Assembly (NCBI GenBank): GCA_005883075.1 | Contig: VBAX01000047.1 | Coordinates: forward strand, 29,598-93,597 | Reading direction: 5' to 3' | Origin: Candidatus Bathyarchaeota archaeon | GTDB lineage: Archaea; Thermoproteota; Bathyarchaeia; 40CM-2-53-6 | DNA: 64,000 nt | Shown here: positions 12,829 to 58,930 of the stretch, piece after piece | How the letters are laid out: each line of letters starts with the position of its first letter | How positions within the stretch are numbered: the stretch's first letter is position 1 | Notes under the pieces: model-generated | Told to the model about the DNA's origin: nothing | Seen by the model: the letters and a program-made list of their open reading frames with translations, nothing else | Databases searched by the model: none | Made by a program: the position numbers and the translations under genes

Positions 12829-13779
12829 CTAGTTGCCCCTGATGATGCGGGCTCCGCCGGCCGGGCTGGTTACGAAGAAAGTGGAGTCAATGTTGTTCTT
12901 CGAGAATTCTTTCACCATTACTCTTCCGATCTTCTTGGGGTCCTGCTTGGTTTTGTCGACGAATGCAACTACACTGGGACCTGCGCCGCTGATCGCGACT
13001 CCGCTTGCGTGTGCGCTAAGTGCTGCTTTCTTGACCATTTTGTAGCCCGGGACAAGTTTCTCTCTTCGGGGTTCTGCAATTGCATCTTCCATTCCGCTCC
13101 CGATCAGTTCGATATCTCCTCTTGCAAAGCCCAGGGCGATGGCTGATGCTCGTCCGATATTGAGAACCGCCTCCTTGACCCCGATTGTCTTCGGAACCAA
13201 CTTCCTAGAGAGGCTTGTTTTGTTCTTTGGAAGCCGAATATTCGGGGAGACGACAACAACGGAAAGCTTGGCTGGCGCTCTTGTGGAGATGGTTCTCAAA
13301 GGGTCCCCGTATGCTATTACGAATCCCCCGAGCAAGGATGCGCTTACGTTGTCAGTGTGGGCTGACCCTGAAGAAGCGGCCTCTCCGAGACTGGCAATCT
13401 TGACCAATTCATCGGGGGGAAGATGGAGCTCTAGGAGGTGGTTAATTGCCTGCGTGCATGCTGCAGCCGTTGCGCCGCTGCTGCCAAGACCTAGACCGGG
13501 CGGAATGTTCTTCTCGATAGTTATCTCGACACCGTTGTCCAGTCTGCTCCTACCAAGTAATGCTCGGGCTGGGGGACCAGCAGAATTCTTGTCGGGGGAA
13601 ATCGGCAGCCCCCTGCCGTAGGGTCCTAGGATCATGATCTTGACAATTCGTGTTCTTGAAGTTTTGACCTGAACTCGGTCGGCATATTTGCCGAGTGCTA
13701 ATCCGAAAGTGTCGAATCCGGCTCCAAGATTGGCCGTGGAACAGTACGCCTCGACCCTCACCGCTTTGTCAGGGATCAA
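12829..13779 (-). CDS. thrB: homoserine kinase (GHMP kinase)
   Basis: GHMP motif PPGLGLGSSGATAAA. First gene of the thrB-thrC-hom-ask operon. Confidence 0.8.
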   Translation of the reverse strand: MIPDKAVRVEAYCSTANLGAGFDTFGLALGKYADRVQVKTSRTRIVKIMILGPYGRGLPISPDKNSAGPPARALLGRSRLDNGVEITIEKNIPPGLGLGSSGATAAACTQAINHLLELHLPPDELVKIASLGEAASSGSAHTDNVSASLLGGFVIAYGDPLRTISTRAPAKLSVVVVSPNIRLPKNKTSLSRKLVPKTIGVKEAVLNIGRASAIALGFARGDIELIGSGMEDAIAEPRREKLVPGYKMVKKAALSAHASGVAISGAGPSVVAFVDKTKQDPKKIGRVMVKEFSKNNIDSTFFVTSPAGGARIIRGN

Positions 13780-13872
13780 CGGTCGAATTTCTCAACTGAG
13801 ACTCCGCCTTTCGTTCGATAATAACTGGCCTCGTACCAATGTCTCAATTTCGGCCGACAGGGAAAGCTTTCA

Positions 13873-14082
13873 GAATCGCCCATTATCAGCCCTGAACTCG
13901 ATTCTGGAAACCCCCTATGAACTCTCCCGAGATTCGTTCGGAATTGTCGTCTTCTTTCCATTCTGATCCCAGCCTAAATCCTGCCCTGAATCGTGTGACT
14001 CGCCCAGAATTAGTGCCAGACAGGAAGTCGTTTCCAGAAAATAGGGGGTCTTAGCGACCGACCCTCGCGTCGCAAGAGCGGC
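13873..14082 (+). repeat. copy A of a 4-copy, ~215-bp non-coding intergenic repeat family (candidate ncRNA or MITE)
   Basis: Aligns over its full length with 29626-29842 in the same orientation and with 47166-47384 and 58719-58930 as reverse complements. Conserved blocks are GCCCTGAAT, CTCGCC, CCAGACAG.AA.TC.TTC, AAAATAGGGGGTC and CGCG.CGCAAG. Confidence 0.8.
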
Positions 14083-14274
14083 GAAACTGATAAGCCCCAG
14101 AATTGGTTTAGGTATGTCATTCGTGGTCATGACCAATAGACCATTTTCGTGACACATAACTGTGTACTTCTCCGAATCTCGTTTCGTAGCGAAGGCTTAC
14201 GTTTCAGCCAAGCTCGCACGGTTCTAAGCACGAAACTACAGTATACCCAACCATTCGTTTTTTCTTGCAGACGC

Positions 14275-19320: not shown

Positions 19321-19465
19321 CTATTCTCCCATCCCGTTATCGTGAGGAACTGTCTAAGCGTTCACGGACTAACGCGTTCATATCTCTAACGGTAGCATGC
19401 GCTAGAATCAATTTTCCCACACGCCGCTTGCCGGTCCAAAAAACGGGGGTCGATTATACTTTAGG

Positions 19466-19870
19466 CTAGGTTGATCCGCCCTTCTCATCAGTTTTCTTGA
19501 AGTCTAAAGCGAGTGAGTTAACGCAGTACCGTAGTCCAGTAGGCTGGGGACCATCCTCGAACACGTGGCCTAGATGACCGCCACACTTCTTGCATAAAAT
19601 CTCGACCCTTTTCATGAAGAGGCTGCGGTCGGACTTTTCCTCAACATTCTCCTTTTCTGCTGGGGTCCAGAAGCTGGGCCAGCCTGTTCCTGAGTCAAAC
19701 TTTGTATCAGAAGAGAATAGTGGTGCTCCACATCCAGCGCAGAGATACATCCCCTCCTCTTTGTTGTGGAGGTATTTTCCTGTAAAGGGACGTTCGGTGG
19801 CCTTCTTTCTCAAAACTTGATAGGTTTCCGTGTCCAGCTGTTTCTTCCATTCTTCTTCGGATTTCTTCAT
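19466..19870 (-). CDS. msrB: peptide-methionine (R)-S-oxide reductase
   Basis: SelR fold with two CxxC zinc motifs and GTGWPSFW. Catalytic region is RVEILCKKCGGHLGHVF. Confidence 0.9.
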   Translation of the reverse strand: MKKSEEEWKKQLDTETYQVLRKKATERPFTGKYLHNKEEGMYLCAGCGAPLFSSDTKFDSGTGWPSFWTPAEKENVEEKSDRSLFMKRVEILCKKCGGHLGHVFEDGPQPTGLRYCVNSLALDFKKTDEKGGST

Positions 19871-20005
19871 ACTATCTAGAGGGCTATAGCGGTAGATATC
19901 CTAATCGCTCTTTGGGAGCGATCTCTGACCCATCTAGAACCTTGTTCAACGGACAAGACCAGACTTTCTTCAGTTTGCGGTGCCTTTGAGATGTTGCTAT
20001 GGGAC

Positions 20006-22585: not shown

Positions 22586-24625
22586 TCACATTGGATGTAT
22601 GTGGGACTCAGCACATGAGGCTGGGAAGGAACCGGTGGCAACGGGGGAGAAAACTTCAATCCGGTTGTTGCTCGTTCCACTGGAGGTTCCTGTATCGACC
22701 ACGTAGACATTCCCTGAACTGTCCACGGCCAGCCCGTTCGGATTCACGAGCTGGCCATTTGCAGACCCCATCATCCCGAAGGATGTGAGAAACGTGCCGT
22801 TGCTGGCGAACTCTTGGACTCGGTTATTGAAAGTGTCGGCCACGTAGACATTCCCAGCTGAGTCTAGGGCTAAGTGTCCAGGGACATTGAACTGCCCATT
22901 TCCGGGACCGGAAGATCCCCAGGAGATGAGGAATCCTCCCGAGCTGTTGAATTTCTCGATACGATTGTTCGATGAGTCGCTTACATACACGTTGCCTGAG
23001 GCGTCTACAACGATGCCAGTTGGATTGCTGAACTGGCCGTTAGCGGTCCCCAACGACCCCCAAGTCATGATGAAGTTTCCTAAACTGTCAAACTTTTGCA
23101 CTCGATTGCCCGAGTAATCTGTAACGTAGACGTTGTTTGAACTGTCTGTTGCGACACCGTATGGACCGTTGAACTGCCCGTTGCCCAATCCAAAGGATCC
23201 CCATGCTCTAGTGAAAGTACCGTTCGGAAGGAATTTTTCAATTCGGTTATTGGAATAATCTGAAACATAGACGCTACCACTGTGGTCGACGGCAACTCCA
23301 AAAGGACCGTCGAGCTGGCCGGCTGCATTCCCAGTCGCTCCCCACGCCAATAGGAAAGTTCCAGATGTGGAGAACACTTGTATTCGATTATTTAGTTCGT
23401 CAACAACATAGACGCGGCCCGAACTGTCCACGGCTCCATCATAAGGACTAGAGAACAGTCCGAATCTTGGATATGTGAGACTTGAAATGTACGATCCTGT
23501 GCTAGCTGAGAATTTCTGAACTCTAAAGTTGTTTGAATCACCAACATACAGGTTCTGCAGAGAATCAACGGCTACCCCAACCGGGTTGTTGAACTGTCCA
23601 GGCAATCCGCCCGGAGAGCCCCACATCAAGATGAGGTTGCCGGTCGTAGTGTCGAACCTTTCCACATCATTCCGCAGGTTGTCGGTGACATAGATGTTGG
23701 ATGCGTTGTCGACTGCCATCATCGCCGGTGCCGCAAGGCTGCCCCCGAAATTCAGCCCTCCCCACGTTAGGACAAGACTGCCCGTCTTGGTAAATTTAGT
23801 AATATTGTTCGACTTGGTGGCGCTGTCGCTCACGTATACGAATCCTGACGAATCCACCGCTATTCCATACGGACTCAGGAATTTGCCTTGACTCGTACCA
23901 AGCCCGCCGAAAGATCCAACGTATGTTCCATTATTCCTGAATATCTGAACACGTTGGTTTCCTTGATCTACCACGTATACGAAGCCGGTAGCGTTAACGC
24001 TAACCCCGAGCGGGGTCTTGAATTGGCCATTTCCGGACCCAGTCGAGCCCCATGAGGTGATGAAGTTCCCGGAAGAATCGAACTTCTGAATGTTGTTATT
24101 CACTGAATCAGAAACGTACACGTTTCCTTGGGGGTCCCGAGCGATTCCTTGTGGGGTGTTGAACCGTCCTGGCCCGGTCCCTTGGGATCCCCATGTGGTT
24201 ACGAGCGATCCATCCCTTGCTAGTTTGTAAACCGCGTAGTTCTTTGCATCGGCGATGAAGATGTTGCCTGCAGAATCTACTGCAACCCCGTTGGGGGCTA
24301 AGGGTCCCCCATACCCGCCCCATTGCCGAGAGTAGACAAAGGAGTTGGTTCCAGCAACCGTAGCCTGGGTTCGGCCTCCCGCTACCCCGGCCAGCACCAT
24401 GGTCCCCTGAGTGATTATCAGAATCGTCACGGAAAGGGACAACACAAAAAGAATCATAGACCGGAGGAAAATCGGCCTTTTTTCCGTATTAACTGCGCTA
24501 GAACGAGACGCGTAGTTCACTCGCGAATTGGGACGACGTTGTGAAGAGGAGTCCTTTCTGCCAGGCCAGAGCTCTGGGTTGGTCGGGGTTCCCCTCTGTG
24601 CAAAGGTCATGAGGAGAAGAAGCAT
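22586..24625 (-). CDS. NHL-repeat beta-propeller protein (about 13 repeats) with N-terminal signal anchor
   Basis: About 13 tandem 45-47-aa repeats of the form NNRIQKFxxxGxFxxxWGSxGxGNGQFxxPxGxAVDxxGNVYVxD. Likely real start at MILFVLSLSV (about 24460), a signal anchor. Confidence 0.85.
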   Translation of the reverse strand: MLLLLMTFAQRGTPTNPELWPGRKDSSSQRRPNSRVNYASRSSAVNTEKRPIFLRSMILFVLSLSVTILIITQGTMVLAGVAGGRTQATVAGTNSFVYSRQWGGYGGPLAPNGVAVDSAGNIFIADAKNYAVYKLARDGSLVTTWGSQGTGPGRFNTPQGIARDPQGNVYVSDSVNNNIQKFDSSGNFITSWGSTGSGNGQFKTPLGVSVNATGFVYVVDQGNQRVQIFRNNGTYVGSFGGLGTSQGKFLSPYGIAVDSSGFVYVSDSATKSNNITKFTKTGSLVLTWGGLNFGGSLAAPAMMAVDNASNIYVTDNLRNDVERFDTTTGNLILMWGSPGGLPGQFNNPVGVAVDSLQNLYVGDSNNFRVQKFSASTGSYISSLTYPRFGLFSSPYDGAVDSSGRVYVVDELNNRIQVFSTSGTFLLAWGATGNAAGQLDGPFGVAVDHSGSVYVSDYSNNRIEKFLPNGTFTRAWGSFGLGNGQFNGPYGVATDSSNNVYVTDYSGNRVQKFDSLGNFIMTWGSLGTANGQFSNPTGIVVDASGNVYVSDSSNNRIEKFNSSGGFLISWGSSGPGNGQFNVPGHLALDSAGNVYVADTFNNRVQEFASNGTFLTSFGMMGSANGQLVNPNGLAVDSSGNVYVVDTGTSSGTSNNRIEVFSPVATGSFPASCAESHIHPM

Positions 24626-28926: not shown

Positions 28927-29592
28927 ATGATCTCATTGTGTGACGTGCGAGAGTCTTTAACCTTAGGCGAGATCCGGTTCGACATGCCGCGAGAGATGAC
29001 CGTACTAGAGGGAATCAACTCTCTTCGGTCCGTCCGAAAATTCAAGTCTGACCCCATTCCTGAGGACAAGTTGAGGATCATCCTCGAGTCCGCGTCCAAG
29101 GCCGCGTCTGGTAGCAATACTCAGCCATGGGAGTTCGTCGTGGTTCGTGATGCGAGGATGAAAGCGCGTCTCAAGGAACCGATGCTGAGAACATGGCTCG
29201 AAAAGCTTGCGGCTGGTTCGGGAATGTCTCAGCGTATGCGTGATGTCTATGACGATGCAACTGAGATGCTTCGGAACACTGACAATGTGCCCGTGATAAT
29301 CTACTGCTGCATTGACATCGATCGTGTTGGGAAGAGTGAGGAGGTCCGGTACGCAAGCATCTATCCTGCAGTCCAGAACCTTATGCTTGCAGCCCACGCG
29401 CTAGGTCTCGCAACCTGCCTGACTGTTCACGGGTCAACACCAACTCGTGGAGAGCCCGAGGTCAAGAAGCTACTTGAAATTCCGGAACACGTTAAGATCG
29501 CATGCCTTGTCTATCTAGGCTATCCAGCTGTTAGACTCGGTCATCCCAAGAGAAAGCCAATTGAGAAATTCACACACCACGACCACTGGTAA
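28927..29592 (+). CDS. nitroreductase-family protein
   Basis: Nitroreductase-fold motifs RSVRKF and SGSNTQPWEFVVV. Confidence 0.75.
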   Translation: MISLCDVRESLTLGEIRFDMPREMTVLEGINSLRSVRKFKSDPIPEDKLRIILESASKAASGSNTQPWEFVVVRDARMKARLKEPMLRTWLEKLAAGSGMSQRMRDVYDDATEMLRNTDNVPVIIYCCIDIDRVGKSEEVRYASIYPAVQNLMLAAHALGLATCLTVHGSTPTRGEPEVKKLLEIPEHVKIACLVYLGYPAVRLGHPKRKPIEKFTHHDHW

Positions 29593-29625
29593 GTCGCACC
29601 TTAATCGGGTTCCTTTCTAGCTTCT

Positions 29626-29842
29626 AAGCCCAAAGAGAAGCCAGATCGGGAATCTGGGACACCGTCAAATTCTCGCCTCCAAATTGTTCAGGAACTGACC
29701 TAAATTACACGTTAACTCGCTCTTTGATCAAAGCCCAAACCCTGCCCTGAATCGCAATATTCGCCCATTACCAATGCCAGACAGAAAATCTTCCCATCAA
29801 AAAATAGGGGGGTATTGCACAGAACATCTCACGACGCAAGTC
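29626..29842 (+). repeat. copy B of the ~215-bp intergenic repeat family
   Basis: Homologous to 13873-14082 in the same orientation. Lies between the convergent stops of the nitroreductase (+) and DUF35 (-) genes. Confidence 0.8.
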
Positions 29843-29845
29843 CGG

Positions 29846-30607
29846 CTATCCAGAGAGAGTGTCGCCAGGCTCGGTTTCAGAAGAGCTCTTAACCGCTTTC
29901 CGCCATTCTCTCGCCTTGTCCCCAAGCCTGCGAAGCAGCTTATCCTCTTCACGAGTGAGAAGTTCGCCTTTGCCAATCTTACTTCTTAGCGAGGATATCG
30001 TCATCTCATCCTCCTCTACCGGATATCCTGACTCTTCGATAGAATGGAGAAGCGACCTCGCCTGGTCATCCACCTTTCCCACATTCTGTCTCTCCGCTCT
30101 TCCACCCTCTACGGTTATCTTGCTTGGCACGGTTGAGATCGGTTTGAATGCGAGAATATCCGTGATAGCGCCTGTACGTTCTCCCAGGTTCTTGAGAGAT
30201 GGCGCTACTTTCATTCCGATCGATACGCTATCAGGATCCTCCGCAGCAAGCAAGTGGATTATTCCTCCCTTGACGCCTTCAAACTTCACGAGGCCCACTG
30301 TTACGGGCGAGTCGGTGTCAGAACCTGATCTGTTCCTATTGACACAAGTGAAACTGTAGACATAACCTGGCTTGTCGATTGGAAACTGGTCTTTCATCTC
30401 GATGAAACAGTCGGGGCAGTACATTCTGGCCGGAATGTAAGTGCTCTTGCACTTTGAGCATTTCGAGACTAGAAAGCGACCGTTATCCCGGAGTTCACGT
30501 CGAAACTCCTCCCCTGCAACCCCTGCAGTGTAGTGGTATTCCAGAGGTATGCTGTCCGTCCAGTGCCGAGCTTGACCGGGTTGAGCGAGTTTCTCTAAAA
30601 TTGGCAT
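29846..30607 (-). CDS. DUF35 OB-fold/zinc-ribbon protein with an about 90-aa charged C-terminal extension
   Basis: CSKCKS...CPDC rubredoxin-like ribbon followed by an OB fold. Extra C-terminal tail rich in E/K/R. Confidence 0.7.
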   Translation of the reverse strand: MPILEKLAQPGQARHWTDSIPLEYHYTAGVAGEEFRRELRDNGRFLVSKCSKCKSTYIPARMYCPDCFIEMKDQFPIDKPGYVYSFTCVNRNRSGSDTDSPVTVGLVKFEGVKGGIIHLLAAEDPDSVSIGMKVAPSLKNLGERTGAITDILAFKPISTVPSKITVEGGRAERQNVGKVDDQARSLLHSIEESGYPVEEDEMTISSLRSKIGKGELLTREEDKLLRRLGDKAREWRKAVKSSSETEPGDTLSG

Positions 30608-36993: not shown

Positions 36994-37175
36994 ATAGCTG
37001 GCCCTATCTTCAACCCTTGCCTTCGTAAGATTTGGACGTTACCAGCACTTCGACCGACACGAGATACTCCTGAGACCTGCGCGTCGAGAGGCCGGGCTTT
37101 GTGTTACCTGATTCCCATTGTGAGGGTTAGGCTCTGGCTATCATAGGCCTTGCCAATGGCCCTAGCGACCCAACC

Positions 37176-37529
37176 ATGAAGGTCAAGCACAAAGCCAAGG
37201 CGAAGACAAGATCGAAACCTAAGACCAGAGCCAAATCCAAGACGAGCCGAACAACCCGGGCAAGGACGGCCACGATGCCAACCCCGATTACAACGCCAAA
37301 CCTGAGCCCCGATTTCAAGACCTGTGAAGAGGTAGAAGTTGGAGATATCGGCGGCTTCGGAATCACCAGCGAGGAACGGATGGAACGAGAGACCCGATGC
37401 TCTCAGCGCGCAATACAGTTCTGCAAGAGCTGTGCTAGGAACCTATGCAATACTCATTACGACCTCCTTCACAAAGACCACGACAATATCGTCCGCCACG
37501 ATTCAGGGCCGAGCCCAGTTCAAATGTAG
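37176..37529 (+). CDS. small protein with Lys/Arg/Thr-rich N-terminus and C-terminal Cys/His zinc-finger-like cluster
   Basis: C-terminal CSQRAIQFCKSCARNLCNTHYDLLHKDH. An antisense hydrophobic ORF (37127-37366) overlaps it. A terminator hairpin follows immediately. Confidence 0.3.
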   Translation: MKVKHKAKAKTRSKPKTRAKSKTSRTTRARTATMPTPITTPNLSPDFKTCEEVEVGDIGGFGITSEERMERETRCSQRAIQFCKSCARNLCNTHYDLLHKDHDNIVRHDSGPSPVQM

Positions 37530-37533
37530 GCGT

Positions 37534-37570
37534 ATGGTGGGACACCCGTCCCATCTTCTCCTTTTTTTTC
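37534..37570 (+). terminator. hairpin + T-run terminator
   Basis: GTGGGACacccGTCCCAtcttctccTTTTTTTT. Confidence 0.45.
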
Positions 37571-37882
37571 GGAACAATTGGGGTCTTCATGTTTCAAGCC
37601 AAATCATCGAAATGAAGCGCGATTGTGCCCTAGTCTCCCTCATCAAGGCCGAACTCGCTTGAATGGCTGTGTGTCCACGGTTGCTTCCCGCATCCTCTTG
37701 ATACAGTCGAAATAGGCTTCAATTGGGAAAAATGGATTCGTTTCAGCCGAATTGTGGGTAAGATCCTGAGCGCACCGATTGTCTTGGACGTCCTTTCGGG
37801 AACGGAAGCTTATTACTCGGTACGTCCAACCGGCCTTCAGCTATTACCTAACATTTCCCGAAAAAAAGGTGGAAAACAGCCT

Positions 37883-40933: not shown

Positions 40934-41306
40934 GCCTTTTCTCTATGAAGTCTAACTGTTTTGTAAGGAACTTCTTGTATGTTCTGAGAAGCTTCACCTG
41001 CTGAGGCTTCGTCTGCTTGTCGATTGTGGTCATGGTCCGACGGAAAGTCTCAACAGTCTCTTCTAGTCCGGCTGACACTTTTGGACCCGTGTCTTGCACG
41101 AATTTCTCTGTAGAAGTTTTGAGTGTCTTGCTTGCAGCAACTAGGTCCCTGCTCAATTGTTGGAGGTCTTTTCGCATGGCCTCGAGGGCTTCCTTAGCCT
41201 CGCGGCGCACTTCATCTCGCCTATTCTTCTTTTCTGACATCTCTGACTCTGAGAATTGGCATCTGAAGATAAAGCTTCGAATTTGAACGGTTTTATCTGA
41301 ATTCAT
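40917..41306 (-). CDS. coiled-coil hypothetical protein
   Basis: Charged, heptad-like sequence. Real start probably at MSEKKNRRDE. Confidence 0.35.
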   Translation of the reverse strand: MNSDKTVQIRSFIFRCQFSESEMSEKKNRRDEVRREAKEALEAMRKDLQQLSRDLVAASKTLKTSTEKFVQDTGPKVSAGLEETVETFRRTMTTIDKQTKPQQVKLLRTYKKFLTKQLDFIEKRLKETE

Positions 41307-41315
41307 ATTAGACTC

Positions 41316-41753
41316 GTGGTTGGGCTGCGGAGCATGAAAGGGGTTCGGGACAAGGTTTACTCAGCGTGGAAAGAGGGGAAACCTCCTAGCCCTGCGATCG
41401 GGACGCTGGGGATTAGAGTTCGCAGCATAGAAGAGAGCAGAACGGTCCTCGAAATGGACGTGGACGAGCATTTGCACAACTTGTCCGGGACGATGCATGG
41501 GGGAGTCATGGTGGATATTGCGGATGCTGCGATGGGGATTGCGGTGGCGTCGACCCTGAAGCCCGATGAAGATATGACTACTATCGAGTTGAAGATGAGT
41601 TTCATGCGCCCTCACGTCAAGGGGCGGTTGGTTGCGGAGGGGACGATTGCCAAGAGGGGCCGGCGTATCGCCTTCACCGAGGCCGTTCTCACGAACGTGA
41701 AGAAGGAGATCGTAGCGAAGTGTAGCGGGACGTGGCTAATAATGCCCGCTTAG
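41316..41753 (+). CDS. PaaI/hotdog-fold acyl-CoA thioesterase
   Basis: HGGVMVDIADAAMG hotdog motif. Confidence 0.8.
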   Translation: MVGLRSMKGVRDKVYSAWKEGKPPSPAIGTLGIRVRSIEESRTVLEMDVDEHLHNLSGTMHGGVMVDIADAAMGIAVASTLKPDEDMTTIELKMSFMRPHVKGRLVAEGTIAKRGRRIAFTEAVLTNVKKEIVAKCSGTWLIMPA

Positions 41754-41765
41754 CTTGGCCTTGCC

Positions 41766-42590: not shown

Positions 42591-42753
42591 TTTAGAAGAA
42601 TGCCTGATCTCGGCAAACGAGATCTACTCACGAAAAGTCTACTGAGAACAAGAAGCTAACGGGGCCGCGACGCGGATGGTCCCGTGGACGGGCGCTTCGC
42701 GTTCAAACTCTTGATCTAAATATCCCGATCGCCATTGTCGTAGCAGTTGGAAA

Positions 42754-43077
42754 ATGGCATCGCAAGTACCGTTGCTTACGCTAGCGAAATTCCTGGTCCT
42801 GATCGGAGGCGTCGTTCTCTTGGTCGGGGGAATATTGCAGGCTATTGACGTGAGACTAATGGATTTCGGTACCAACTTGGCCCGATTAGGAAGTTTCACA
42901 GGGATAGTCGTAGGAATCCTCGTAGGAATATTGGCACTAGTTGGATCAAGGGAGGTTGCCAATCCGGCATGGAGCCTCATCCTTCTAATACTCGGCTTAT
43001 TCGTTGGAAGCCTCGGCGGCATACTGGTCTTCATCGGAGGGCTGATCGGCCTCGTCGCCCACTACGTGAAGGTCTAA
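42754..43077 (+). CDS. small membrane protein (related to the 53040-54847 paralog family?)
   Basis: 107 aa with 3 TM helices and G/I/L-rich segments resembling the tandem membrane paralogs downstream. Confidence 0.4.
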   Translation: MASQVPLLTLAKFLVLIGGVVLLVGGILQAIDVRLMDFGTNLARLGSFTGIVVGILVGILALVGSREVANPAWSLILLILGLFVGSLGGILVFIGGLIGLVAHYVKV

Positions 43078-43371
43078 CGAGCCGATAGGTTCGAAAAACG
43101 AGGGTAAGATGTTGGAGATAGAAGTATACAATTGCGGTTGCAAGGTCCGCATCTATGCGGTGGAGTTCGGGGAGTCAAAGAACGACCTCACAGAGCGACC
43201 TAGCGTTATTTCAGATTACAGCCCTTGTTCCAAGCACCGGAATGCGCGTAGGATTCCGCCTCAAGAGGCTCGCCTCTTGAAGGTAAGGGGCGAACATGAG
43301 GCCTTTCTGAACGAGTAAAGACCCGCTTTCATTAGTGATTCACTCTTATTATTCGGTCGATGGCGCGGACC

Positions 43372-46683: not shown

Positions 46684-47165
46684 AAAACGTTAAGGCAACG
46701 TTTCTTGGTCCGTTTTCACATCTTCGCGTCCTCCTCGACGGAGTAGGTACTCCGAGAAACAAGTCACTTCGAGGCTGAGGCTCTGGTAACGACCAGCAAA
46801 TTGCCGGACTATGTCTGTCTTGTATGGAATACTAAGGGCAGGGATGCGGGGACTTGGCGACCTGGGAAGAACCTAGAGAACTGGACACTGACAATGAGGC
46901 TGTGATCAGCCTCTACGACGGCATCAAGAAAATACTGGAAAAACAGCCGAAGCCCAAGTCCAAGCCAAGCTCTGGCATCCCGAGAGAAGCAAGACACATC
47001 TTACGTTGCGGTCGAATCCTCAAGGTCGATATCGAACGGAAACTCATCGTTATTACTGTCATGAAAACGGACGGCGAGCTTCACCAGCTTCGAATAGAAG
47101 CCAACCAAGACTAACCGAACACCGGATCGGATCTAGGGATACTTTCGGAATACTCCGTTTCTCCC

Positions 47166-47384
47166 TCTCTTGTGACGCGAGGGTCGGTCGCTAAGACCCC
47201 CTATTTTCTAGAAAAGATTTCCTGTCTGGCATAGATAATCGGCGAGTCTCGCGATTCAGGGCACGATCCGGGCTTAGATGTGATCGCAAAAAACGGGAAG
47301 TCTAGCGCCATTCCCGAACGATTCAGGGGGCGAGATAGGGGTGTGGTCCCAGATTCGGGATCAGGGCTGATTTTGGGCGATCCA
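47166..47384 (-). repeat. copy C of the ~215-bp intergenic repeat family (reverse orientation)
   Basis: Its reverse complement aligns with 13873-14082, and the 3' half is nearly identical. Located downstream of the stop of the mutase gene. Confidence 0.8.
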
Positions 47385-47410: not shown

Positions 47411-48991
47411 TCACACGTCGCGCCTTACCCGGTATTCTCCGAAGGCGTCTCTTAGAACTTCGCTGATTTCACCGACGGTGCAGTTTGCCCGGACGGCGCT
47501 TAAGATGCGATTCACGAGATTCTCTTCGTGCTTCGCAGAACTGGAAAGGCGTCCAAGAGCATTTTTGACCAGCGCAGTATTTCTCGTTCCTTTCATCATC
47601 TTCAGCTGTCTTATCTGATCTCTCTCGAGCTTGGGGTCGATGCGCTGGATTTTTGGTCCACTGCTTCCCTCGGTAAACTTGTTGACTCCGACAATAATCG
47701 TTCGTCCTTCGTCAACAGATTTCTGGAACCTGTAAGCGCTTTCCTGTATCTCGCGATGGACAAATCCGGATTCTATCGCCTTTCTCGCGCCACCTAAATC
47801 TTCCACTTTCTCTAAGAGACGAGTCGCGTCGGCCTCAAGATCTCTTGTCAAGGATTCCAGATAGTAGCTACCGGCTAGTGGATCCGCCGTTTTGGTCACT
47901 CCTGATTCGTGGGCAATTATCTGCTGGGTACGCAAGGCAATTTGAACCGACTCTTCGGTTGGCAGAGAGAGTGCCTCGTCCCTGGAATTTGTATGCAGAG
48001 ATTGTGTTCCACCGAGAACTCCTGCAAGGGCTTGGATTGCGACCCGGACAATGTTGTTGTCAGGCTGTTGGGCGGTCAAAGTCTCACCACTTGTCTGGGT
48101 GTGAAATCGTAGCTTGCAGGATTCAGGATCCCGGGCTTTGAAACGGTCCTTCATGATCCGGGCCCAGATTCTACGCGCAGCTCTGAATTTCGCGATCTCC
48201 TCCAAGAAATCATTCCTGCAGGCAAAGAAGAAAGAAAGTTGGGGGGCGAACTGGTCTATCTTGAGCCCTCGTTCAAGAGCCGCCTTAACGTATTCGATCG
48301 CGTTTGCAAAACAAAAGCCTAGTTCCTGGATCGCGTTCGCGCCCGACTCGCGAATATGATAGCCACTGATGCTGATCGGGTGCCACCGGGGCATCTTGTA
48401 GGCGCAGTATTCTATGAGATCGACGGAGAGCTTTAGCGATGATTCTGGAGGATAGATGTAGGTATTCCTTGCGATGTACTCCTTCAGAATATCATTCTGT
48501 GTCGTTCCCGTTAACTTGTTCTGAGGGACCCCCTGTTCCATTCCAACCGCGACGTAGAGAGAAAGCAGGATTGGTGCGGTGGCGTTGATTGTCATGCTAG
48601 TGCTGACCTTTCCAAGGTCGATGCCCTCGAAGAGACGCCTCATGTCATAGACGCTACTTATTGCAACTCCCACTCTCCCAACTTCTCCAGCAGCCCTTGG
48701 ATAGTCTGAGTCGAGACCGAGCTGTGTTGGCAGGTCGAATGCTGTGCTGAGCCCGGTCTCACCGTGAGATATCAGATACTTGAAGCGGCGATTAGTTTCT
48801 TTGGCAGACCCGAAACCCGTGTATTGACGCATGGTCCAAAGCCGATCCCGATACATTCCATCGTAGATCCCACGCGTGTATGGGAACTGGCCCGGTTTCC
48901 CCAGTGACCTTGTCCAGTTCGGTGGAACATCCTTTTTCTCGTAGATTTTTTTGACGAGGATCCCAGAGTCTGTTGTTACAGGGTCGGTCAA
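47411..48991 (-). CDS. mcmA: methylmalonyl-CoA mutase, catalytic (large) subunit lacking the B12-binding domain
   Basis: MCM TIM-barrel with RQYTGFG (Tyr) and RNTYIYPP (Arg) signature residues. 526 aa, so no C-terminal B12 domain. Confidence 0.9.
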   Translation of the reverse strand: MTDPVTTDSGILVKKIYEKKDVPPNWTRSLGKPGQFPYTRGIYDGMYRDRLWTMRQYTGFGSAKETNRRFKYLISHGETGLSTAFDLPTQLGLDSDYPRAAGEVGRVGVAISSVYDMRRLFEGIDLGKVSTSMTINATAPILLSLYVAVGMEQGVPQNKLTGTTQNDILKEYIARNTYIYPPESSLKLSVDLIEYCAYKMPRWHPISISGYHIRESGANAIQELGFCFANAIEYVKAALERGLKIDQFAPQLSFFFACRNDFLEEIAKFRAARRIWARIMKDRFKARDPESCKLRFHTQTSGETLTAQQPDNNIVRVAIQALAGVLGGTQSLHTNSRDEALSLPTEESVQIALRTQQIIAHESGVTKTADPLAGSYYLESLTRDLEADATRLLEKVEDLGGARKAIESGFVHREIQESAYRFQKSVDEGRTIIVGVNKFTEGSSGPKIQRIDPKLERDQIRQLKMMKGTRNTALVKNALGRLSSSAKHEENLVNRILSAVRANCTVGEISEVLRDAFGEYRVRRDV

Positions 48992-49938
48992 GCGTGTTCT
49001 CCTAGCTTGGATATGATTTCCACAAGTCTCGATGCAGCTGTCTCTGGATCAAGTTCACGTTTGACAACTCTTCCGACTAGAGCGTCGAGTTCTTTCTGAT
49101 CTCCGAGACGCTTGACGGTCTGATGATAGAAATCTGAGAAAGCGGCATCTACCAGCTCGGACTGGATCCTTTTGCTCAATCTTTTCTCCCTGAGGCTTCC
49201 AGTCTCCAAATGCTTCCGGAATTTTTCGATTGCATCAACAACCGCAGGGACACCTGTTCCCTTGACCGCCACAGTCTTCAGAACCGGTGGCCTCCATCCA
49301 TCTCTCTCTTGCAGACCGCTTGCGATGTTGTAGATCGTCTTCGCTGGGTTGACCAGGTCTGACTTGTTGATGACGAACAGGTCGCCAATCTCAGCGAAGC
49401 CTGCCTTGAACGCCTGAACCTCATCGCCTAGCTGAGGCATCAGAACGACAATCGTGGCGTCCACTGTCGACGCGATTTGTACCTCCGTCTGGCCTGCTCC
49501 CACAGTCTCCACGATGATAACGTCCATCCCGGCTGCATCCAGTACTCGTATCGTGTTTCTCGCGGCTCGAGCGAGTCCACCCAGGTCACCTCGAGAGGCC
49601 ATGCTCCGAATGTAGACTTTCTTCTCCAGGCTATGGTCCATCATCCTCACCCGGTCCCCCAGCAACGCACCACCAGTGAACGCGCTGGACGGGTCGATTG
49701 CTAGAACTCCAACGCTACGTTCTCTCTCTCGATACTCTCCAACTATCTTGTCCACGAGAGTGCTCTTGCCAGTCCCAGTCGGACCAGTAACGCCGATGGT
49801 GAAGGCCTTGCCCGTATGCGGATACAATTCTTGAATCAGCTTTCGGCTCGGCTCTCCGCCAGCCTCGACTATCGAGATCGCCTTGGCAACAGCGCGATGC
49901 TCACTCTTGAGCACTTGAGAAGATAGCTCCCGAGCCAA
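48988..49938 (-). CDS. meaB: MeaB/ArgK methylmalonyl-CoA mutase-associated GTPase (G-protein chaperone)
   Basis: P-loop GPTGTGKST and an NKSD G4 motif. Overlaps the upstream mutase gene by 4 nt. Confidence 0.9.
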
Positions 49939-51807
49939 GTGAAATTCTCAGTTCTGCTCTCGCCTCTAGAGCGTATTTCAAGATTCGGCGATGAAGGGCG
50001 TCAGGATAATGGAAAAATAGGAACCTACGGGCATCTTCTATTGTTTCGTGATCGTGTTTTGGCAAAGGGTTACTGGAAGAAAGTTCTAGACGAGATCAAA
50101 CAGGAAAGAAGGGCTCCACCAACCACCTTCGACAGGAAGCAACTTGCGAAGGTCAAGCAAGAGAGGGTCCGGTGGGAAACCAAGACGCTCAAACCGTGGA
50201 CCCGCGTTAGCCCTGAACAAAAGGAGGAATTCAGAAACCTATCCAATATTCCAGTGAAAAGAGTCTACACCCCAGAAGACGTATCACACCTAAACCAGTC
50301 CGAGGAGATCGGACTTCCAGGCGAGTATCCCTATGTCCGCGGGGTCTACCCGACGATGTACCGGGGACGACCGTGGACGATGCGCATGTTCTCCGGCTTC
50401 GGAACCCCGGAAGACACGAACAAACGTCTACACTACTTGCTGGAACATGGAGAGACTGGTCTGAGCATTGCATTCGACATGCCGACGCTCTACGGGTATG
50501 ACCCTGACAGTCAGCGGGCTGAGGGAGAGGTGGGACGCTGCGGTGTGTCGGTGGGCTCGTTAAAGGACATGGAGATTATTCTCGAAGGTATACCGTTGGA
50601 GAAGGTGAGTACTAGTATGACGATCAATGCTCCCGCGTCGGTTCTAACTGCGATGTATGTTGGCGTTGCTGAGAGACAGGGTCTGAAACCGAAGGAGCTT
50701 CGAGGGACAGTTCAAGCGGACATTCTCAAGGAGTACATCGCTCAGAAGGAGTGGGCTTTCCCACCTGAGGCGCATCTCAGAATCATCCGTGACATGATGG
50801 TGTATTGTACTAAAGAGATGCCGCAGTGGAACTACATCAGCATCAGCGGCTACCATATCCGTGAAGCAGGGTCCAGCGCAGTTCAGGAACTAGCGTTCAC
50901 GCTCGCCGATGGTTTCGCGTATGTTGACCTCGGAATCGAAGCAGGGCTCAAGGTCGAGGATTTCGCGCCCCGCCTTTCCTTCTTCTTTAACTGCGGGATG
51001 GACTTTTTCGAAGAGGTCGCAAAGTTCCGGGCTGCACGGCGAATCTGGGCAAGGGTGTTGAGAGACAAGTACAAGGTCAAAGACCCTAGATCACTCTTGT
51101 TGAGGACGCACGCCCAGAACTCTGGCGCATCTCTAACATGGCAGCAACCCCTCAACAATATTGTACGAACAACCATTGAGGCATTAGCAACGGTGCTTGG
51201 CGGGACCCAATCGCTTCATACCAATTCTTACGATGAGGCGTGGGCATTGCCCTCTGAAGCAGCGGCTACTGTTGCCCTGAGGACCCAGCAGATCATTGCG
51301 GAAGAGACTGGTGTCACAGACACTATCGATCCGCTGGCCGGATCGTACTATCTGGAATGGCTGACTGATGAGATGGAGGAACGAGCCTTCCAGTACTTCG
51401 ACAAGATAGAAAGAGCTGGCGGATTGTTGGACGCGATCAAGACCGGGTTCATTCAGAGAGAGATCGCTGAGAACTCCTACCGTTTCCAGCAGGAACTTGA
51501 GAGAGGGGACAGGGTTGTCGTTGGCGTGAACAAGTACCAGATCGAAGAGAAGAAGCCGATTGATACGTTGAAGATCAACGAAGAGGCACAACGACGCCAG
51601 GTCGCAAGGATAAACATGGTGCGGGAAACACGGGACAACAAGAAAGTTGAGCAAGCGTTAGATGAACTACGGAAGACATTCAAGGACGAGAAAGCGAACT
51701 CCATGTATCCTATGGTCAAAGCCGTCAAAGCCTACGCAACGCTAGGGGAGATCATGGATGTGGGACGGAAGATTTTCGGCGAATACAAGGAACCACCGAT
51801 TCTCTGA
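49939..51807 (+). CDS. second B12-dependent acyl-CoA mutase catalytic subunit, isobutyryl-CoA-mutase-like (Phe/Gln signature)
   Basis: Homologous along its length to the 47411-48991 mutase, but with RMFSGFG (Phe for Tyr) and QKEWAFPP (Gln for Arg). The true start is probably a TTG/GTG about 100-120 nt downstream of 49939. Confidence 0.85.
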
Positions 51808-52459: not shown

Positions 52460-53062
52460 ATGTTGTCAAGAGAGAACCTGAAGTTTCGCAGGACGCCGAA
52501 ACCTTGGAAGACACTAGAGAGCAGGAAGATTGCGTCGCTGGGCGACTTGAAGCTTCATCGCGACCGGATCGTCTCCAAAACCGGCTTCCAAATGGTCCAT
52601 CCACGACTATTCGTTGACGATTTCTCGATCGTCATCCCGGTTCTTGGTCGGGATAAGCTTGTGATGATATGGAATTATCGATACGCTATCCAGGGCTGGG
52701 AGCTCGAGCTTCCAGCCGGCCACATCGAAGATGGTGAGAGCCCGGAGGCTTGTGCCAGGAGGGAGCTGGAAGAGGAGACGGGGTACTCTGCGGGTTCATG
52801 GAAGAGGCTTGGATGGTTTCATCCCTCTCCAGGGTTATCTTCCCAGAGGGCGTATGTCCATCTTGCCCGCAACCTGAAAGCCGGATCTTTGCATCGGGAG
52901 CGCTACGAGGTTGGTATGGAAGTTAAGATTCTCAACCTACGGGATGCGTACAAGCAGCTGTGGCATGGCGAGATTGTTCATTCGCCAACCGCGTCCGCTC
53001 TAGGGATAGCTCAGCCGAGAATTCTAAGAGCGGAAAGAGCTACTGTTTCGCGCCGCAACTAG
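52460..53062 (+). CDS. NUDIX hydrolase (ADP-ribose pyrophosphatase-like)
   Basis: Nudix box GHIEDGESPEACARRELEEETG. Confidence 0.8.
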   Translation: MLSRENLKFRRTPKPWKTLESRKIASLGDLKLHRDRIVSKTGFQMVHPRLFVDDFSIVIPVLGRDKLVMIWNYRYAIQGWELELPAGHIEDGESPEACARRELEEETGYSAGSWKRLGWFHPSPGLSSQRAYVHLARNLKAGSLHRERYEVGMEVKILNLRDAYKQLWHGEIVHSPTASALGIAQPRILRAERATVSRRN

Positions 53063-53693
53063 TGCAGAACGAGTTCCCCGGTGCAAGCGGGACGCCACAT
53101 GAACGACATTTCGCCATTGCAGCAGCCACCACCGGTGCTTGTCCCGGTGCTGAGGGGGAAGGGTTGTACTGGAGGGTTGGTTGTGCCGCCGGAGCGTACT
53201 GAGTCTGTGATTGAAGGGTGGGAGAGTACCTTAGTGTCGGTTGAGTGTTCATCGCGGGCATGGAGGTTGGGACCATTCCCTTGCCGAAGAAGACTTTGAC
53301 GTGAGATCTGGTGAGATAGATGATCATGATGAGCCAGAAGACTAACGCGTAGCCTGCTTGGTACAGTCCGGTAAACGCGGCGTAGGCTGCGCCGAGGATC
53401 GAGAGCACCGTGAAGATCATTCCAAGGGTCCACGCCCAACCTCTTCCATGGAGAAAGCCGACCCCGGTCGCCAGCCATACGAGGCTGAAGAAGAGAAAGA
53501 CTCCACCGATAACGATCCCGACGGTACCGATCAGGGTTCCAACCGTGGGAAGAGTGGAGAATATGGCAGCCAAGCCGATGATAGCAAGGCTGACTAGAAG
53601 TCCAAGGACACCGATTAGGATCTGAATTATCGCGAGAAGTGTAATGCCGATTGGCCGGGAGGGCTTCTGCATCATGGAAAATCGAGTCTTCAC
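53040..53693 (-). CDS. membrane protein with C-terminal Q/P-rich linker and zinc ribbon (paralog 1 of 3)
   Basis: 4 TM helices, the shared HVKVFFGKG motif, and a C-terminal CRSCGVPLAPGNSFCTSCG. Confidence 0.55.
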   Translation of the reverse strand: MKTRFSMMQKPSRPIGITLLAIIQILIGVLGLLVSLAIIGLAAIFSTLPTVGTLIGTVGIVIGGVFLFFSLVWLATGVGFLHGRGWAWTLGMIFTVLSILGAAYAAFTGLYQAGYALVFWLIMIIYLTRSHVKVFFGKGMVPTSMPAMNTQPTLRYSPTLQSQTQYAPAAQPTLQYNPSPSAPGQAPVVAAAMAKCRSCGVPLAPGNSFCTSCGAKQ

Positions 53694-53810
53694 TGGAAGG
53701 TGTTAAGCGGACTGTTACCAACCTCCTTCACGAAGAGTGAGCTAGGTCGGAATGAGTGAACAGAAGTGTAAAGAAAGCCTAATTCTGATTGCTTTGAGAT
53801 ATCGGCTCGA

Positions 53811-54344
53811 CTAGGGTGTCGAGGAACCCGTTCCTGGCACAGTAGAGCGTAATGCCATCGGGGTTCCCTTACCGAAGAAGACTTTGACGTGCGGTCTCAT
53901 TAGATAGTAGATTATCAGTAGCGAGATTATCAAAGAGAGGATACTACCGTAATTGCCACCAACCATCTGAAATACGTCGAGAACTATTCCAATGACACTC
54001 ACTATGATCCCTAGATTCCACGCCCATCTCTTTCCACCCAAGAACCCAACTCCGACGGCTAGATAGAGGATTCCTAGAATCAAGATTGCCGCGCCGAGGG
54101 CGATTATTAATGCCGATATGGTTCCTACGCCGAGCGAGGCCAGTCCGGGATAGCCAGCATTTGTTATAGCGTTTGTAATGTCAATAGAAGCGGATAGCGT
54201 ACCAAGGAGGAGTCCAAGTCCAATGAGCACTGCTCCGCTAAACAGAAACGCTATTGCTCCTAGAATTGCTAACACGGCGAGAACTGTTACACCGGTTGGT
54301 CGCGGTGGTTTCGGCTGCATGGTTGTTAGATACTCGCTCCGCAA
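53811..54344 (-). CDS. membrane protein paralog (2 of 3)
   Basis: Shares GKRWAWNLG...YYLMRPHVKVFFGKG with paralog 1. Likely start at MQPKPPRP. Confidence 0.55.
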   Translation of the reverse strand: MRSEYLTTMQPKPPRPTGVTVLAVLAILGAIAFLFSGAVLIGLGLLLGTLSASIDITNAITNAGYPGLASLGVGTISALIIALGAAILILGILYLAVGVGFLGGKRWAWNLGIIVSVIGIVLDVFQMVGGNYGSILSLIISLLIIYYLMRPHVKVFFGKGTPMALRSTVPGTGSSTP

Positions 54345-54847: not shown

Positions 54848-55056
54848 ATCAGATCAGTCTCAGCGAGGCTCTGACAGTATATATAACGTATTCCGTTCTC
54901 GCCGAATTTCGGCGATTCTTGCGAAATTTGGGGATTTTTTCCGGTTTTGAAGCCAGATAACCGTTGACACGATCAGAGTCTCGGGATTGTGTTCGCGTTT
55001 CATGAAGGGCGGAGCGCGCGAAAATCGACCACCCCGGGGGTCACAGATTAGTTAGT

Positions 55057-55093
55057 GAAAAAAGAATAGTTACGGAGAAAAGAATAGTTACAG
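55057..55093. repeat. tandem direct repeat (2 x ~18 bp: GAAAAAAGAATAGTTACGG / AGAAAAGAATAGTTACAG)
   Basis: Seen directly in a 500-bp intergenic region. Confidence 0.5.
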
Positions 55094-55278
55094 AAAGAGG
55101 GCTGTGAGTCTCTACGAGGTTTCTCATATCCGGCTATCTTACGCCAGGTTCTGTTGGTTCGGTATTTCGGACCCAGGTTGAACGCTGGACTTGCTCCGTG
55201 GGAGTTGCGGGGCGGTTTCTCTTCTTTATCCAAAGGAGGTCGATGATGAAGTCGACCTAAAGGGTCGGAATGAAGCGA

Positions 55279-55330
55279 AAAAAGGGAATTTGATTCTCTG
55301 CGTTAGGCTAGCGCGTTGCTAGCAACGCGG
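55279..55330 (-). terminator. perfect 18-bp palindrome CGCGTTGCTAGCAACGCG + T-run (on the minus strand) after the VOC gene stop
   Basis: Palindrome at 55312-55329. On the minus strand it is followed by CCCTTTTTTCGC. Confidence 0.5.
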
Positions 55331-55343
55331 GCGGACGTTATGG

Positions 55344-55694: not shown

Positions 55695-55766
55695 AGTAGC
55701 TGTATATTGCCAAATATTGAGTTTAAAAGTTCTTACACGGGGCTCAGAAACGCCCGTTTTGACGTA

Positions 55767-58688: not shown

Positions 58689-58718
58689 ACCGCGGGCTCT
58701 TGAGCCTCCAGAGGGAAA

Positions 58719-58930
58719 CCGCTCTTGCGTCGCGAGGTGCGCTGTGCAAGACCCCCCCTTTTAGAGGAGAAAATTTTCTGTCTGGTAGTGATTATGGGCG
58801 AGACGGGCTATTCAGGGCTCAGACCAGGCTTGGATCAGGTGACGTTTTTACGAGTCGTCAAGAAGGATTTGCTATGCAATTAAGCGGACTGTCTACAGAT
58901 TCGAGATCAGGGCTTGAAATGGGCGAATCC
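58719..58930 (-). repeat. copy D of the ~215-bp intergenic repeat family (reverse orientation)
   Basis: Its reverse complement aligns with copies A and B. Lies between the convergent stops of the monooxygenase (+) and surface-protein (-) genes. Confidence 0.8.

Follow-up and report, generated by a model that had tools for sequence, protein, structure and literature searches.

A copy of a putative mobile, recombining repeat of soil Bathyarchaeia in the 3'-3' gap between a nitroreductase gene and a convergent DUF35 gene

Introduction

Between the convergent genes for a nitroreductase and a DUF35 protein, a 64,000-nt stretch of DNA from a Candidatus Bathyarchaeota archaeon (assembly GCA_005883075.1, contig VBAX01000047.1, positions 29,598 to 93,597; hereafter “the window”) carries a noncoding sequence of ~220 nt, copy B, which recurs in the window as copies A, C, and D. 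The location of B raises the question of what kind of sequence this is and how it came to lie there: whether it is a host element serving the two genes, an RNA gene, or one copy of a mobile repeat. Bathyarchaeia are abundant and uncultured, and to our knowledge almost nothing is known about their mobile DNA and their noncoding genome. We consider it probable, though well short of certain, that B is an ancient, fixed copy of a new nonautonomous mobile and recombining repeat of soil Bathyarchaeia, that a later deletion set the stop codon of the DUF35 gene against it, and that it has possibly been co-opted.

A repeat family of soil Bathyarchaeia

The core pattern of the repeat, GCCCTGAA(9)TCGCCnA(9)CCAGACAG, matches four times in the window (13983+, 29744+, 47222-, and 58778-; within B, the match covers 29744-29784) and 0 times in 100 shuffles of it. 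A profile built from 49 copies of the family recovers the same four elements and no fifth copy in the window, placing A at 13873-14084 (+), B at 29628-29847 (nhmmer, E=5.6e-48), C at 47160-47382 (-), and D at 58716-58929 (-). The initial annotation had taken B to be homologous to A, C, and D, to share the orientation of A, and to carry a complete 3' module, and on these points it proved right: pairwise blastn links B to D (E=1e-15), C (E=4e-15), and A (E=3e-10) at global identities of 61-67%, A and B both lie on the + strand, and B contains the A-run, the G-run, and the terminal …CACGACGCAAG. In the four-way alignment, similarity covers ~220 nt and is sharply bounded on both sides, by …ATCGCCCA… at the 5' edge and by …CGCAAGAG at the 3' edge, and B was aligned with 45 copies of other genomes as well.

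Scanning 185,579 species genomes (one per prokaryotic species) with the core pattern revealed 49 loci, all of which belong to metagenome-assembled genomes (MAGs) of soil “Candidatus Bathyarchaeota” (BA_4, 9, 21, 22, 24, 25) or to the related “Crenarchaeota archaeon 13_1_40CM_3_52_17”. A profile search of 415 kb of fetched sequence identified 61 full-length copies with unit lengths of 208-231 nt and a median identity within the family of 57%. Copies occur at ~1 per 7-16 kb of examined sequence, mainly in short spacers where genes end. That the core is invariant in the scan set is partly an artefact of the search pattern, a bias of which the orthologs of B described below, found via the neighboring protein, are free. 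Among plasmids, phages, and viruses, there was no blastn match in PLSDB or INPHARED and no pattern match in IMG/VR, and a full-text literature search found no account of such repeats in Bathyarchaeota. We regard the family as a previously undescribed prokaryotic interspersed noncoding repeat, probably mobile, and as a member of no named family.

Modular structure of the unit

Each unit consists of a 5' box, a variable middle, a core, and a pyrimidine/A-rich stretch with a G-run and a 3' block, together ~220 nt, or ~248 nt including the linker. The 5' box of the family, (G)AAATCGCCCATTATCAGCCCTGATCTCGAATCTGGGA, contains a small imperfect hairpin (CCCTGAT-loop-ATCTGGG); the middle is 50-75 nt long and defines the subfamilies; the core reads AAGCCCGGATCGTGCCCTGAATCG(6)TCGCCCATAATCA(3)GCCAGACAGGAAAT; and the 3' block, …CTCGCGACGCAAGAGTGG, stands behind the pyrimidine/A-rich stretch and the G-run. 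An A-run of at least 4 is positionally conserved in 57/60 copies. The 5' box and the core have motifs in common, equal in order and orientation, which in B read TCTAAGCCCAAA/TCAAAGCCCAAA and GCCAGATCGGGAATCT/GCCAGACAGAAAATCT; the internal direct repeats of B lie at 29623-29634/29728-29739 and 29640-29655/29776-29791. The motif GCCC(N2-4)ATC occurs 2.4 times per copy versus 0.065 times in shuffles (~37-fold enrichment) and 0 times on the other strand. This strict polarity of the motifs, in a unit that shows no fold (see below), would point to recognition of the sequence itself rather than of an RNA shape, and we infer that the GCCC(N2-4)ATC boxes, all in the same orientation, are probably recognition sites for a trans-acting protein.

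The boundaries of B itself (Table 1) differ slightly from those first proposed. Conservation among orthologs sets the left edge at 29622 (TTCTAAGCCC), 4 bases ahead of the start given in the initial annotation, and family homology stops at 29840 (…CACGACGCAAG), where TCCGG stands instead of the family's usual terminal AGTGG… and adjoins the stop codon of the DUF35 gene. The 5' box of B is a subfamily variant, with TTCTAAGCCCAAAGAGAAGCC where the family has GAAATCGCCCATTATCAGCCC. B does lie in the 3'-3' gap between the two convergent stops (TAA at 29590-29592 and CTA, the reverse complement of TAG, at 29846-29848), but it does not fill this gap exactly, as had been claimed, since a 29-nt linker remains on the left. 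Nor is the stop-to-stop fit a property of the element: in the relatives L021 and L052 and in ~25 metagenome loci, three additional genes separate the element from the DUF35 gene.

Signs of mobility and recombination in the family

Two kinds of observation that are expected of a mobile element were made in this family: near-identical copies at unrelated sites and presence/absence polymorphism at orthologous sites. Copies that are 96-98% identical are found at loci with unrelated flanks (BA_9, BA_25). At the methionine aminopeptidase (MetAP) locus, the stops of MetAP and of a convergent 129-aa gene enclose a 454-nt dimer in L040, whereas in three lineages whose MetAP is 85% identical (L137-L139, L140-L141, and L144) the same two stops are 5-6 nt apart and the site is empty. 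In L143, a 97% relative, the dimer belongs to another subfamily and the downstream gene is not the same, and L142 retains only a 14-nt remnant of the 5' box. The spacer behind MetAP is a hot spot (L040 6272-6740, L137 2907-2911, L140 2907-2912, L143 2845-3298, L142 2610-2635), and L136 has yet another gene order at this site.

Terminal inverted repeats (TIRs), a hallmark of miniature inverted-repeat transposable elements (MITEs), were found neither in B nor in C nor in the L040 dimer, and the consensus 5' (GAAATCGCCCA…) and 3' (…GCAAGAGTGG) ends are not complementary. The longest word common to both flanks has a mean length of 4.10 in true pairs of flanks versus 4.04 in mismatched pairs (permutation p=0.36), giving no sign of a target-site duplication (TSD), and the left flank of the copies is only loosely purine-rich. 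A 6-nt CTCCGA repeat flanking the L040 dimer was considered as a TSD and rejected, as there is no excess of such repeats family-wide relative to mismatched flanks.

Head-to-tail dimers occur at about ten loci, and pairs of the inverted type were never seen. In six dimers (L013, L017, L035b, L040, L041, and L048), comparison between loci gives 91-98% identity for unit 1 but just 50-78% for unit 2. The high identity reaches across the 25-nt linker, TCGAGGGAACA(G/C)TCTGATTCGCG, and ~24 nt into unit 2, a segment with a diagnostic CGCTTAT variant; it ends at …CCCTGAT, behind which unit 2 follows older subfamilies. The crossover of all six lies within ~14 nt of the 5' box, ending …GCCCTGAT, at the stem/loop border of the 5' hairpin, a point that maps to the position equivalent to B's 5' box; the unit-to-unit junction, from 3' end through linker to 5' box, reads …GCAAGAGTGGTCGAGGGAACAGTCTGATTCGCGAAATCGC…. 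Since a young and an old unit stand together in one pair, local duplication cannot be the source of these dimers, and a young unit-length segment appears to have been joined to an older resident copy in six independent places. Integration of a unit-length copy, either a circle from a dimer or a rolling-circle product, could yield such young-and-old dimers, and it could proceed by homologous recombination, by site-specific recombination, or by nick-dependent strand transfer.

Recombination products of the opposite kind are found too. The orthologous loci L023 and L011 carry dimers, and copy C combines the 5' portion of their unit 1 with the 3' portion of their unit 2; we read C from this alignment as a collapsed, chimeric copy. 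Two otherwise identical metagenome contigs, L066 and L067, differ by 355 nt (1.5 units) that L067 lacks; the deletion junction (L066 3286-3640 versus L067 3285/3286), in a dimer behind the nitroreductase gene, shows GTGCC/TGGCC microhomology and makes L067 a natural knock-out strain. The monomers L072 and L076 resemble unit 2 of the L066 and L070 dimers, and A differs from its BA_25 ortholog, L031, in the middle region, where the two are 43% identical. At the end of some arrays, a linker and a lone 5' box are fused directly to host sequence (L068 3640-3680, L083 3600-3640, L042 5760-5810, L082 3395-3450); such lone boxes can be seen as a truncated extra unit, which fits breakage or crossover inside the 5' box.

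Age and conservation of copy B

Orthologous loci of B were gathered by a metagenome scan with the nitroreductase protein, which is encoded in identical form on contigs of the soil MAG GCA_005884215.1 and of JGI and ENA soil metagenomes. Where the nitroreductase is at least ~76% identical, all ~33 loci have the element, 33-38 nt past the gene and always with the B-type 5' box, and 9 of them have a second unit; where it is ≤75% identical, the element is absent in 17/17 loci. This distribution suggests that B inserted downstream of the nitroreductase gene in the common ancestor of every lineage whose ortholog is at least ~76% identical, before several species diverged. The loci at ≤75% were rejected as a clean empty site for B: as the downstream gene differs there, these loci give the age of the insertion without fixing its exact site.

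Between the element and the DUF35 gene, most lineages have a small zinc-ribbon gene in convergent orientation, then an unknown gene, and finally an SPFH/double-zinc-ribbon gene. The junction …GCAAG/TCCGG/CTA was found only in the window, L056, and L062 and marks a deletion of ~2.3 kb that reaches from the 3' end of the element, its left breakpoint, to the DUF35 stop. This lineage-specific deletion makes the stop-to-stop fit of B a derived accident of the window lineage. Compared with BA_4 and MNGN01, the window lacks three genes here: one on the - strand for a zinc-ribbon protein of 121 aa, one for an unknown protein of 180 aa, and one for an SPFH/Band7 protein of 323 aa that has a double zinc ribbon.

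Mean pairwise identities among 26 orthologs of B amount to 54% at the 4-fold degenerate sites of the nitroreductase gene, 52% in the stop-to-element linker, and 52% in the middle of the element, compared with 78% in the 5' box, 71% in the AAGCCC block, 69% in the core, and 62-63% in the 3' parts. The boxes of B are thus slower than neutral sites (78% for the 5' box versus 52-54%), which suggests that B may have been co-opted. Because the B-type 5' box is unlike the family consensus and yet B-type in all lineages, canonical copies are unlikely to have overwritten it; an alternative cause of its conservation may be conversion among the other B-type boxes, of which there are few (L019, L035a, and L050). 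Decay is seen in some B orthologs, whose profile scores have dropped to 64-98 bits and in which CCAGACAG is mutated. Taken together, these comparisons are moderate evidence for selection on parts of B in most lineages.

Origin of copy B and alternative explanations

According to the reading that we hold to be probable, the family multiplies by recombination, new units being added at the conserved boxes: a unit-length copy, circular or tandem-derived, would integrate into a resident copy at its 5' box, and dimers would collapse by recombination to give chimeric monomers and flanking deletions. B would have entered behind the nitroreductase gene in an ancestor, the later 2.3-kb deletion would have brought the DUF35 stop against it, and B might have been co-opted, e.g., as a protein-binding or 3'-end element. 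Several points weigh against this account. A TSD is lacking, and the only hint of a target motif is a vague CCG(G/A)A on either flank; the open reading frames (ORFs) of at least 150 aa in the window that were scanned against Pfam have no transposase, integrase, or reverse transcriptase match; and the ~0.75 Mb of fetched loci contain no longer element with both ends in common, isolated 5' boxes occurring there only beside known copies and isolated 3' ends not at all. The contrast between filled and empty MetAP sites could in principle reflect precise loss instead of gain, the “young” copies could partly stem from gene conversion rather than from transposition, and the entry of a first copy into a naive spacer is left unexplained. 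B itself shows no sign of recent movement, is kept in all sampled descendants, and has boxes conserved above the neutral level, and its retention and box conservation fit a host function better than junk DNA. A more specific version, which we advance as a speculation with only a small chance of being right, would make the family an archaeal noncoding mobile element of a new kind that multiplies as ~248-nt units: an HUH-type nickase or site-specific recombinase acting in trans would read the GCCC(N2-4)ATC motifs as iterons and cut the 5' hairpin at its loop edge (…GCCCTGAT^), one unit would be released or copied and would integrate at a resident 5' box, arrays would grow and collapse at gene 3' ends, and the host would keep old copies such as B for protein binding or as 3'-end elements.

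Unlikely is the explanation that the copies are, in the first place, cis-elements of the host, which at the 3' ends of genes would terminate transcription or insulate convergent genes from each other, or would be bound by a DNA- or RNA-binding protein; their mobility would be of secondary importance or would belong to the distant past, and B would act for either of its neighboring genes or for both. This would agree with the gene context at 45 loci (crude ORF calls), of which 22 are convergent, 15 codirectional, and just 8 divergent, with the typical start of the element 24-35 nt past the stop codon of the co-oriented upstream gene, and with the retention of B in all ~33 lineages of its clade, including a slowly evolving, lineage-specific 5' box that speaks against homogenization by canonical copies. 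The oriented GCCC(N2-4)ATC motifs and the positionally conserved A-run can be counted on the same side; in B, the A-run appears on the - strand as T6, 42 nt past the DUF35 stop. However, the intrinsic terminators of archaea consist of oligo-T tracts, and the + strand of B has no T-run of at least 4 (the longest is T3). Across the family, T5 or more is found in 10/60 copies and A5 or more in 21/60, but both in 0/60, and the young L013 subfamily has no T-run at the tract position. The idea raised in the initial annotation that B doubles as a bidirectional terminator consequently has little sequence support, and such a role is not suggested for the family in general, while a contribution to termination in one direction is possible for B. 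Orientation to transcription is not fixed either (5 co-oriented and 10 anti-oriented copies in the 15 codirectional gaps, with A being antisense to both of its neighbors), a natural strain variant does without 1.5 units (L067), some B orthologs decay, and a spacer of 5 nt is enough at the MetAP site in three lineages. The initial annotation was reasonable in concluding that B is not a promoter: both neighboring genes have their ends at B, the family occurs in both orientations relative to the genes beside it, and no conserved TATA-like box of the TTTATA type seen upstream of window genes was found inside or upstream of the element.

We think it very improbable that the copies are genes for, or 3' untranslated region-derived forms of, a multicopy structured small RNA such as a guide RNA or a protein sponge. 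The conserved blocks and the strict strand asymmetry of the motifs would suit such an RNA, and B, C, and D lie behind a co-oriented gene, from which read-through transcription could reach them. The folding energies, however, do not stand out from those of shuffled sequences: relative to dinucleotide shuffles, the minimum free energies of four copies have z scores of +0.89, +0.20, +0.58, and -0.40. RNAalifold finds almost no consensus structure on either strand of 49 dispersed copies and 28 orthologs (folding term ~-3 to -6 kcal/mol, with five invariant pairs in the dispersed copies), and a covariation scan over all column pairs has no helix-like pattern. Two candidate helices were tested, and a hand-picked one, pairing the X' box with the G-run, is 73% paired and shows one GC<->UA exchange, but this sole compensatory pair is confined to one subfamily and slid-partner controls are not much lower. 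With weak or no signal in all these analyses, a structured RNA was rejected, as was membership in an Rfam family: the Rfam 15 covariance models have no match at gathering scores over the whole window and none at E≤10 on B or on a dimer, and a tRNA/tmRNA search found nothing. The absence of a conserved TATA-like promoter and the antisense position of about a third of the copies in codirectional gaps speak against an RNA gene as well. Hardly any credence can be given to the last explanation, that the similarity is a remnant of duplicated coding sequence or a small ORF, or an assembly artefact. A stop-free stretch does cover at least 90% of the length in some frame in 23/59 copies, but no ORF is conserved, the best anchored frame being open in 11/55 copies, the copy lengths are spread modulo 3 (28, 19, and 12), and the indels between copies are not multiples of three, all of which speaks against a coding sequence; the same locus appears in independent assemblies from ENA, JGI, NCBI, and Logan.

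Implications

The repeat family is a lineage-specific marker and a source of deletions and synteny breaks, as illustrated by the 2.3-kb deletion beside B, the rearrangements at MetAP, and the 355-nt deletion between strains; it is also a likely cause of assembly breaks in MAGs. Movement without TIR or TSD, combined with the addition of units at one defined point of a box, points to a recombination or nicking activity in these archaea, and the slow evolution of the boxes at a site kept for long suggests that the host may use part of the element.

Other features of the window

The features of B, its flanking genes, and the other copies are collected in Table 1. To the right of A, a ~55-nt block at ~14140-14196 (CATTCGTGGTCATGACCAATAGACCATTTTCGTGACACATAACTGTGTACTTCTCC) is ~90% identical to the BA_25 ortholog, compared with ~55% in the surrounding intergenic DNA; it holds a perfect palindrome, TGGTCATGACCA, and the inverted repeat ACACA(4)TGTGT and may be an operator or a small regulatory element. 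A second block, CTTCGTTCGATAATAACTGGYCTCGTAC at ~13800-13850, is nearly unchanged in the BA_25 ortholog; it lies upstream of the mevalonate-kinase-like gene (12829-13779, -) and is probably the promoter or leader of that gene. At 47411-51807, two paralogs of the methylmalonyl-CoA mutase large subunit (47411-48991, -, and 49939-51807, +) flank a MeaB GTPase gene (48988-49938, -), and copy C lies behind the first of them.

Unrelated to the interspersed repeat are the coding direct repeats, spaced in multiples of 141 nt, of a gene for a 679-aa NHL/beta-propeller repeat protein (22586-24625, -). Two adjacent ORFs of 220 aa and 177 aa at 53059-54344 (-), neither of which has a Pfam match, share a 63-nt stretch at 79% identity (53276-53338 and 53864-53926) and are probably tandem paralogs. 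Gaps of 0.7-0.9 kb without an ORF of at least 150 aa, a tRNA, or an Rfam match lie at 54848-55766, 40934-41765, 36994-37753, 42591-43371, and 19321-20005.

Table 1. Coordinates of copy B, its parts and neighbors, the other copies, and the loci compared with them (window positions unless a locus is named)
Feature	Position	Strand	Remarks
Nitroreductase gene	28927..29592	+	Upstream of B, co-oriented; Pfam PF00881 (Nitroreductase), E=3e-29
Linker between nitroreductase stop and B	29593..29621	+	29 nt, outside the repeat; unconserved, neutral rate; 52% mean pairwise identity among orthologous loci
Copy B, whole ~220-nt interspersed repeat	29622..29840	+	Profile match, core pattern, alignments, ortholog conservation
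5' box, B variant (TTCTAAGCCCAAAGAGAAGCCAGATCGGGAATCTGGGA)	29622..29659	+	Best-conserved part among B orthologs, 78% pairwise identity
Hairpin CCAGAT-CGGGA-ATCTGG in the 5' box	29641-29657	+	Present in the minimum free energy fold
Variable middle of B	29660..29724	+	Subfamily-specific; 52% ortholog identity, neutral rate
Core of B, …AAGCCC…GCCCTGAATCG(6)TCGCCCA(9)CCAGACAGAAAATCT	29725..29791	+	Repeats 5'-box motifs in the same orientation; 69-71% ortholog identity
A-run and G-run	29799..29812	+	A6 at 29799-29804 (T6 on the - strand, 42 nt downstream of the DUF35 stop), then G-run at 29807-29812
3' module, TATTGCACAGAACATCTCACGACGCAAG	29813..29840	+	3' half sequence-conserved; 5' half subfamily-variable
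Junction of TCCGG and the CTA stop of the DUF35 gene	29841..29848	.	Breakpoint of the lineage-specific ~2.3-kb deletion; window compared with L052 and L021
Compared deletion region	Window 29841-29848; L052 1281-3547; L021 7326-8000
DUF35/ChsH2-type gene	29846..30607	-	Zinc ribbon and OB fold; convergent with the nitroreductase gene; Pfam PF12172 (zf-ChsH2), PF01796 (OB_ChsH2_C)
Copy A	13869..14089	+	Flanked by the start of the mevalonate-kinase-like gene and the end of the following gene; antisense to both genes
Copy C	47156..47384	-	28 nt downstream of the methylmalonyl-CoA mutase gene; looks like a collapsed dimer
Dimers orthologous to C	L023 2085-2544; L011 5147-5593		Two other species
Copy D	58711..58930	-	Between convergent genes (510-aa protein, FAD monooxygenase)

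Comparison with known elements

The family lacks the defining traits of MITEs (TIR and TSD), of REPs (a short palindrome), and of IS200/IS605 derivatives (matching end hairpins and a fixed target), and at the same time it has other traits of each. With MITEs, such as the SM elements of Sulfolobus and the Correia elements, it shares its small size (100-400 nt), noncoding nature, multiple intergenic copies, and lack of an own gene, as well as subfamilies of different ages and insertion polymorphism between relatives. It differs from them in having neither TIR nor TSD, in its strict orientation, direct internal repeats, and head-to-tail dimers, and in that an autonomous insertion sequence with the family's ends was not found in the ~0.75 Mb of fetched loci or among the window ORFs. 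Like REP/BIME, REPIN-RAYT, BOX, ERIC, and RUP elements, it is extragenic, situated at gene 3' ends and in convergent gaps, kept at orthologous sites, possibly in part co-opted, and modular (in BOX, boxA-boxB-boxC), and such elements are presumed to be mobilized in trans by a single-copy enzyme. REPs, however, are imperfect palindromes of 20-40 nt and REPINs are inverted pairs of them, whereas the unit described here is 208-231 nt long, nonpalindromic, arranged head to tail, without a stable fold (z -0.4 to +0.9), and archaeal. The position just downstream of stops and a T/A-rich quasi-palindrome (TTTTCTnnAGAAAA) in many copies recall archaeal intrinsic terminators; the tracts of the family, however, are short (mostly T4/A4), absent in one subfamily, and missing on the + strand of B, and the element is far longer than a terminator would need.

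The remaining comparison is with IS200/IS605-derived elements, including the PATEs of haloarchaea, and with rolling-circle elements (IS91 and Helitron-like). A 5' hairpin (CCCTGAT-loop-ATCTGGG) that is unrelated to the 3' hairpin (CTTAGCGA…GCAAG), a 3' hairpin that depends on the subfamily and is not conserved as a structure, the lack of a conserved flanking target tetra- or pentanucleotide, and the lack of a stable structure resembling omega-RNA set the family apart from IS200/IS605 derivatives, and the whole left 5' box retained by monomers does not fit a simple excision from nick site to nick site as in rolling-circle elements; no HUH/Rep gene turned up in the Pfam scans of the window ORFs. 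With both groups, the family nevertheless shares the absence of TIR and TSD, a fixed polarity, a hairpin-capable 3' region, head-to-tail tandems, and a breakpoint at the edge of a small hairpin loop, and its adjacent direct repeats recall the nick site and iterons of an origin served by an HUH enzyme.

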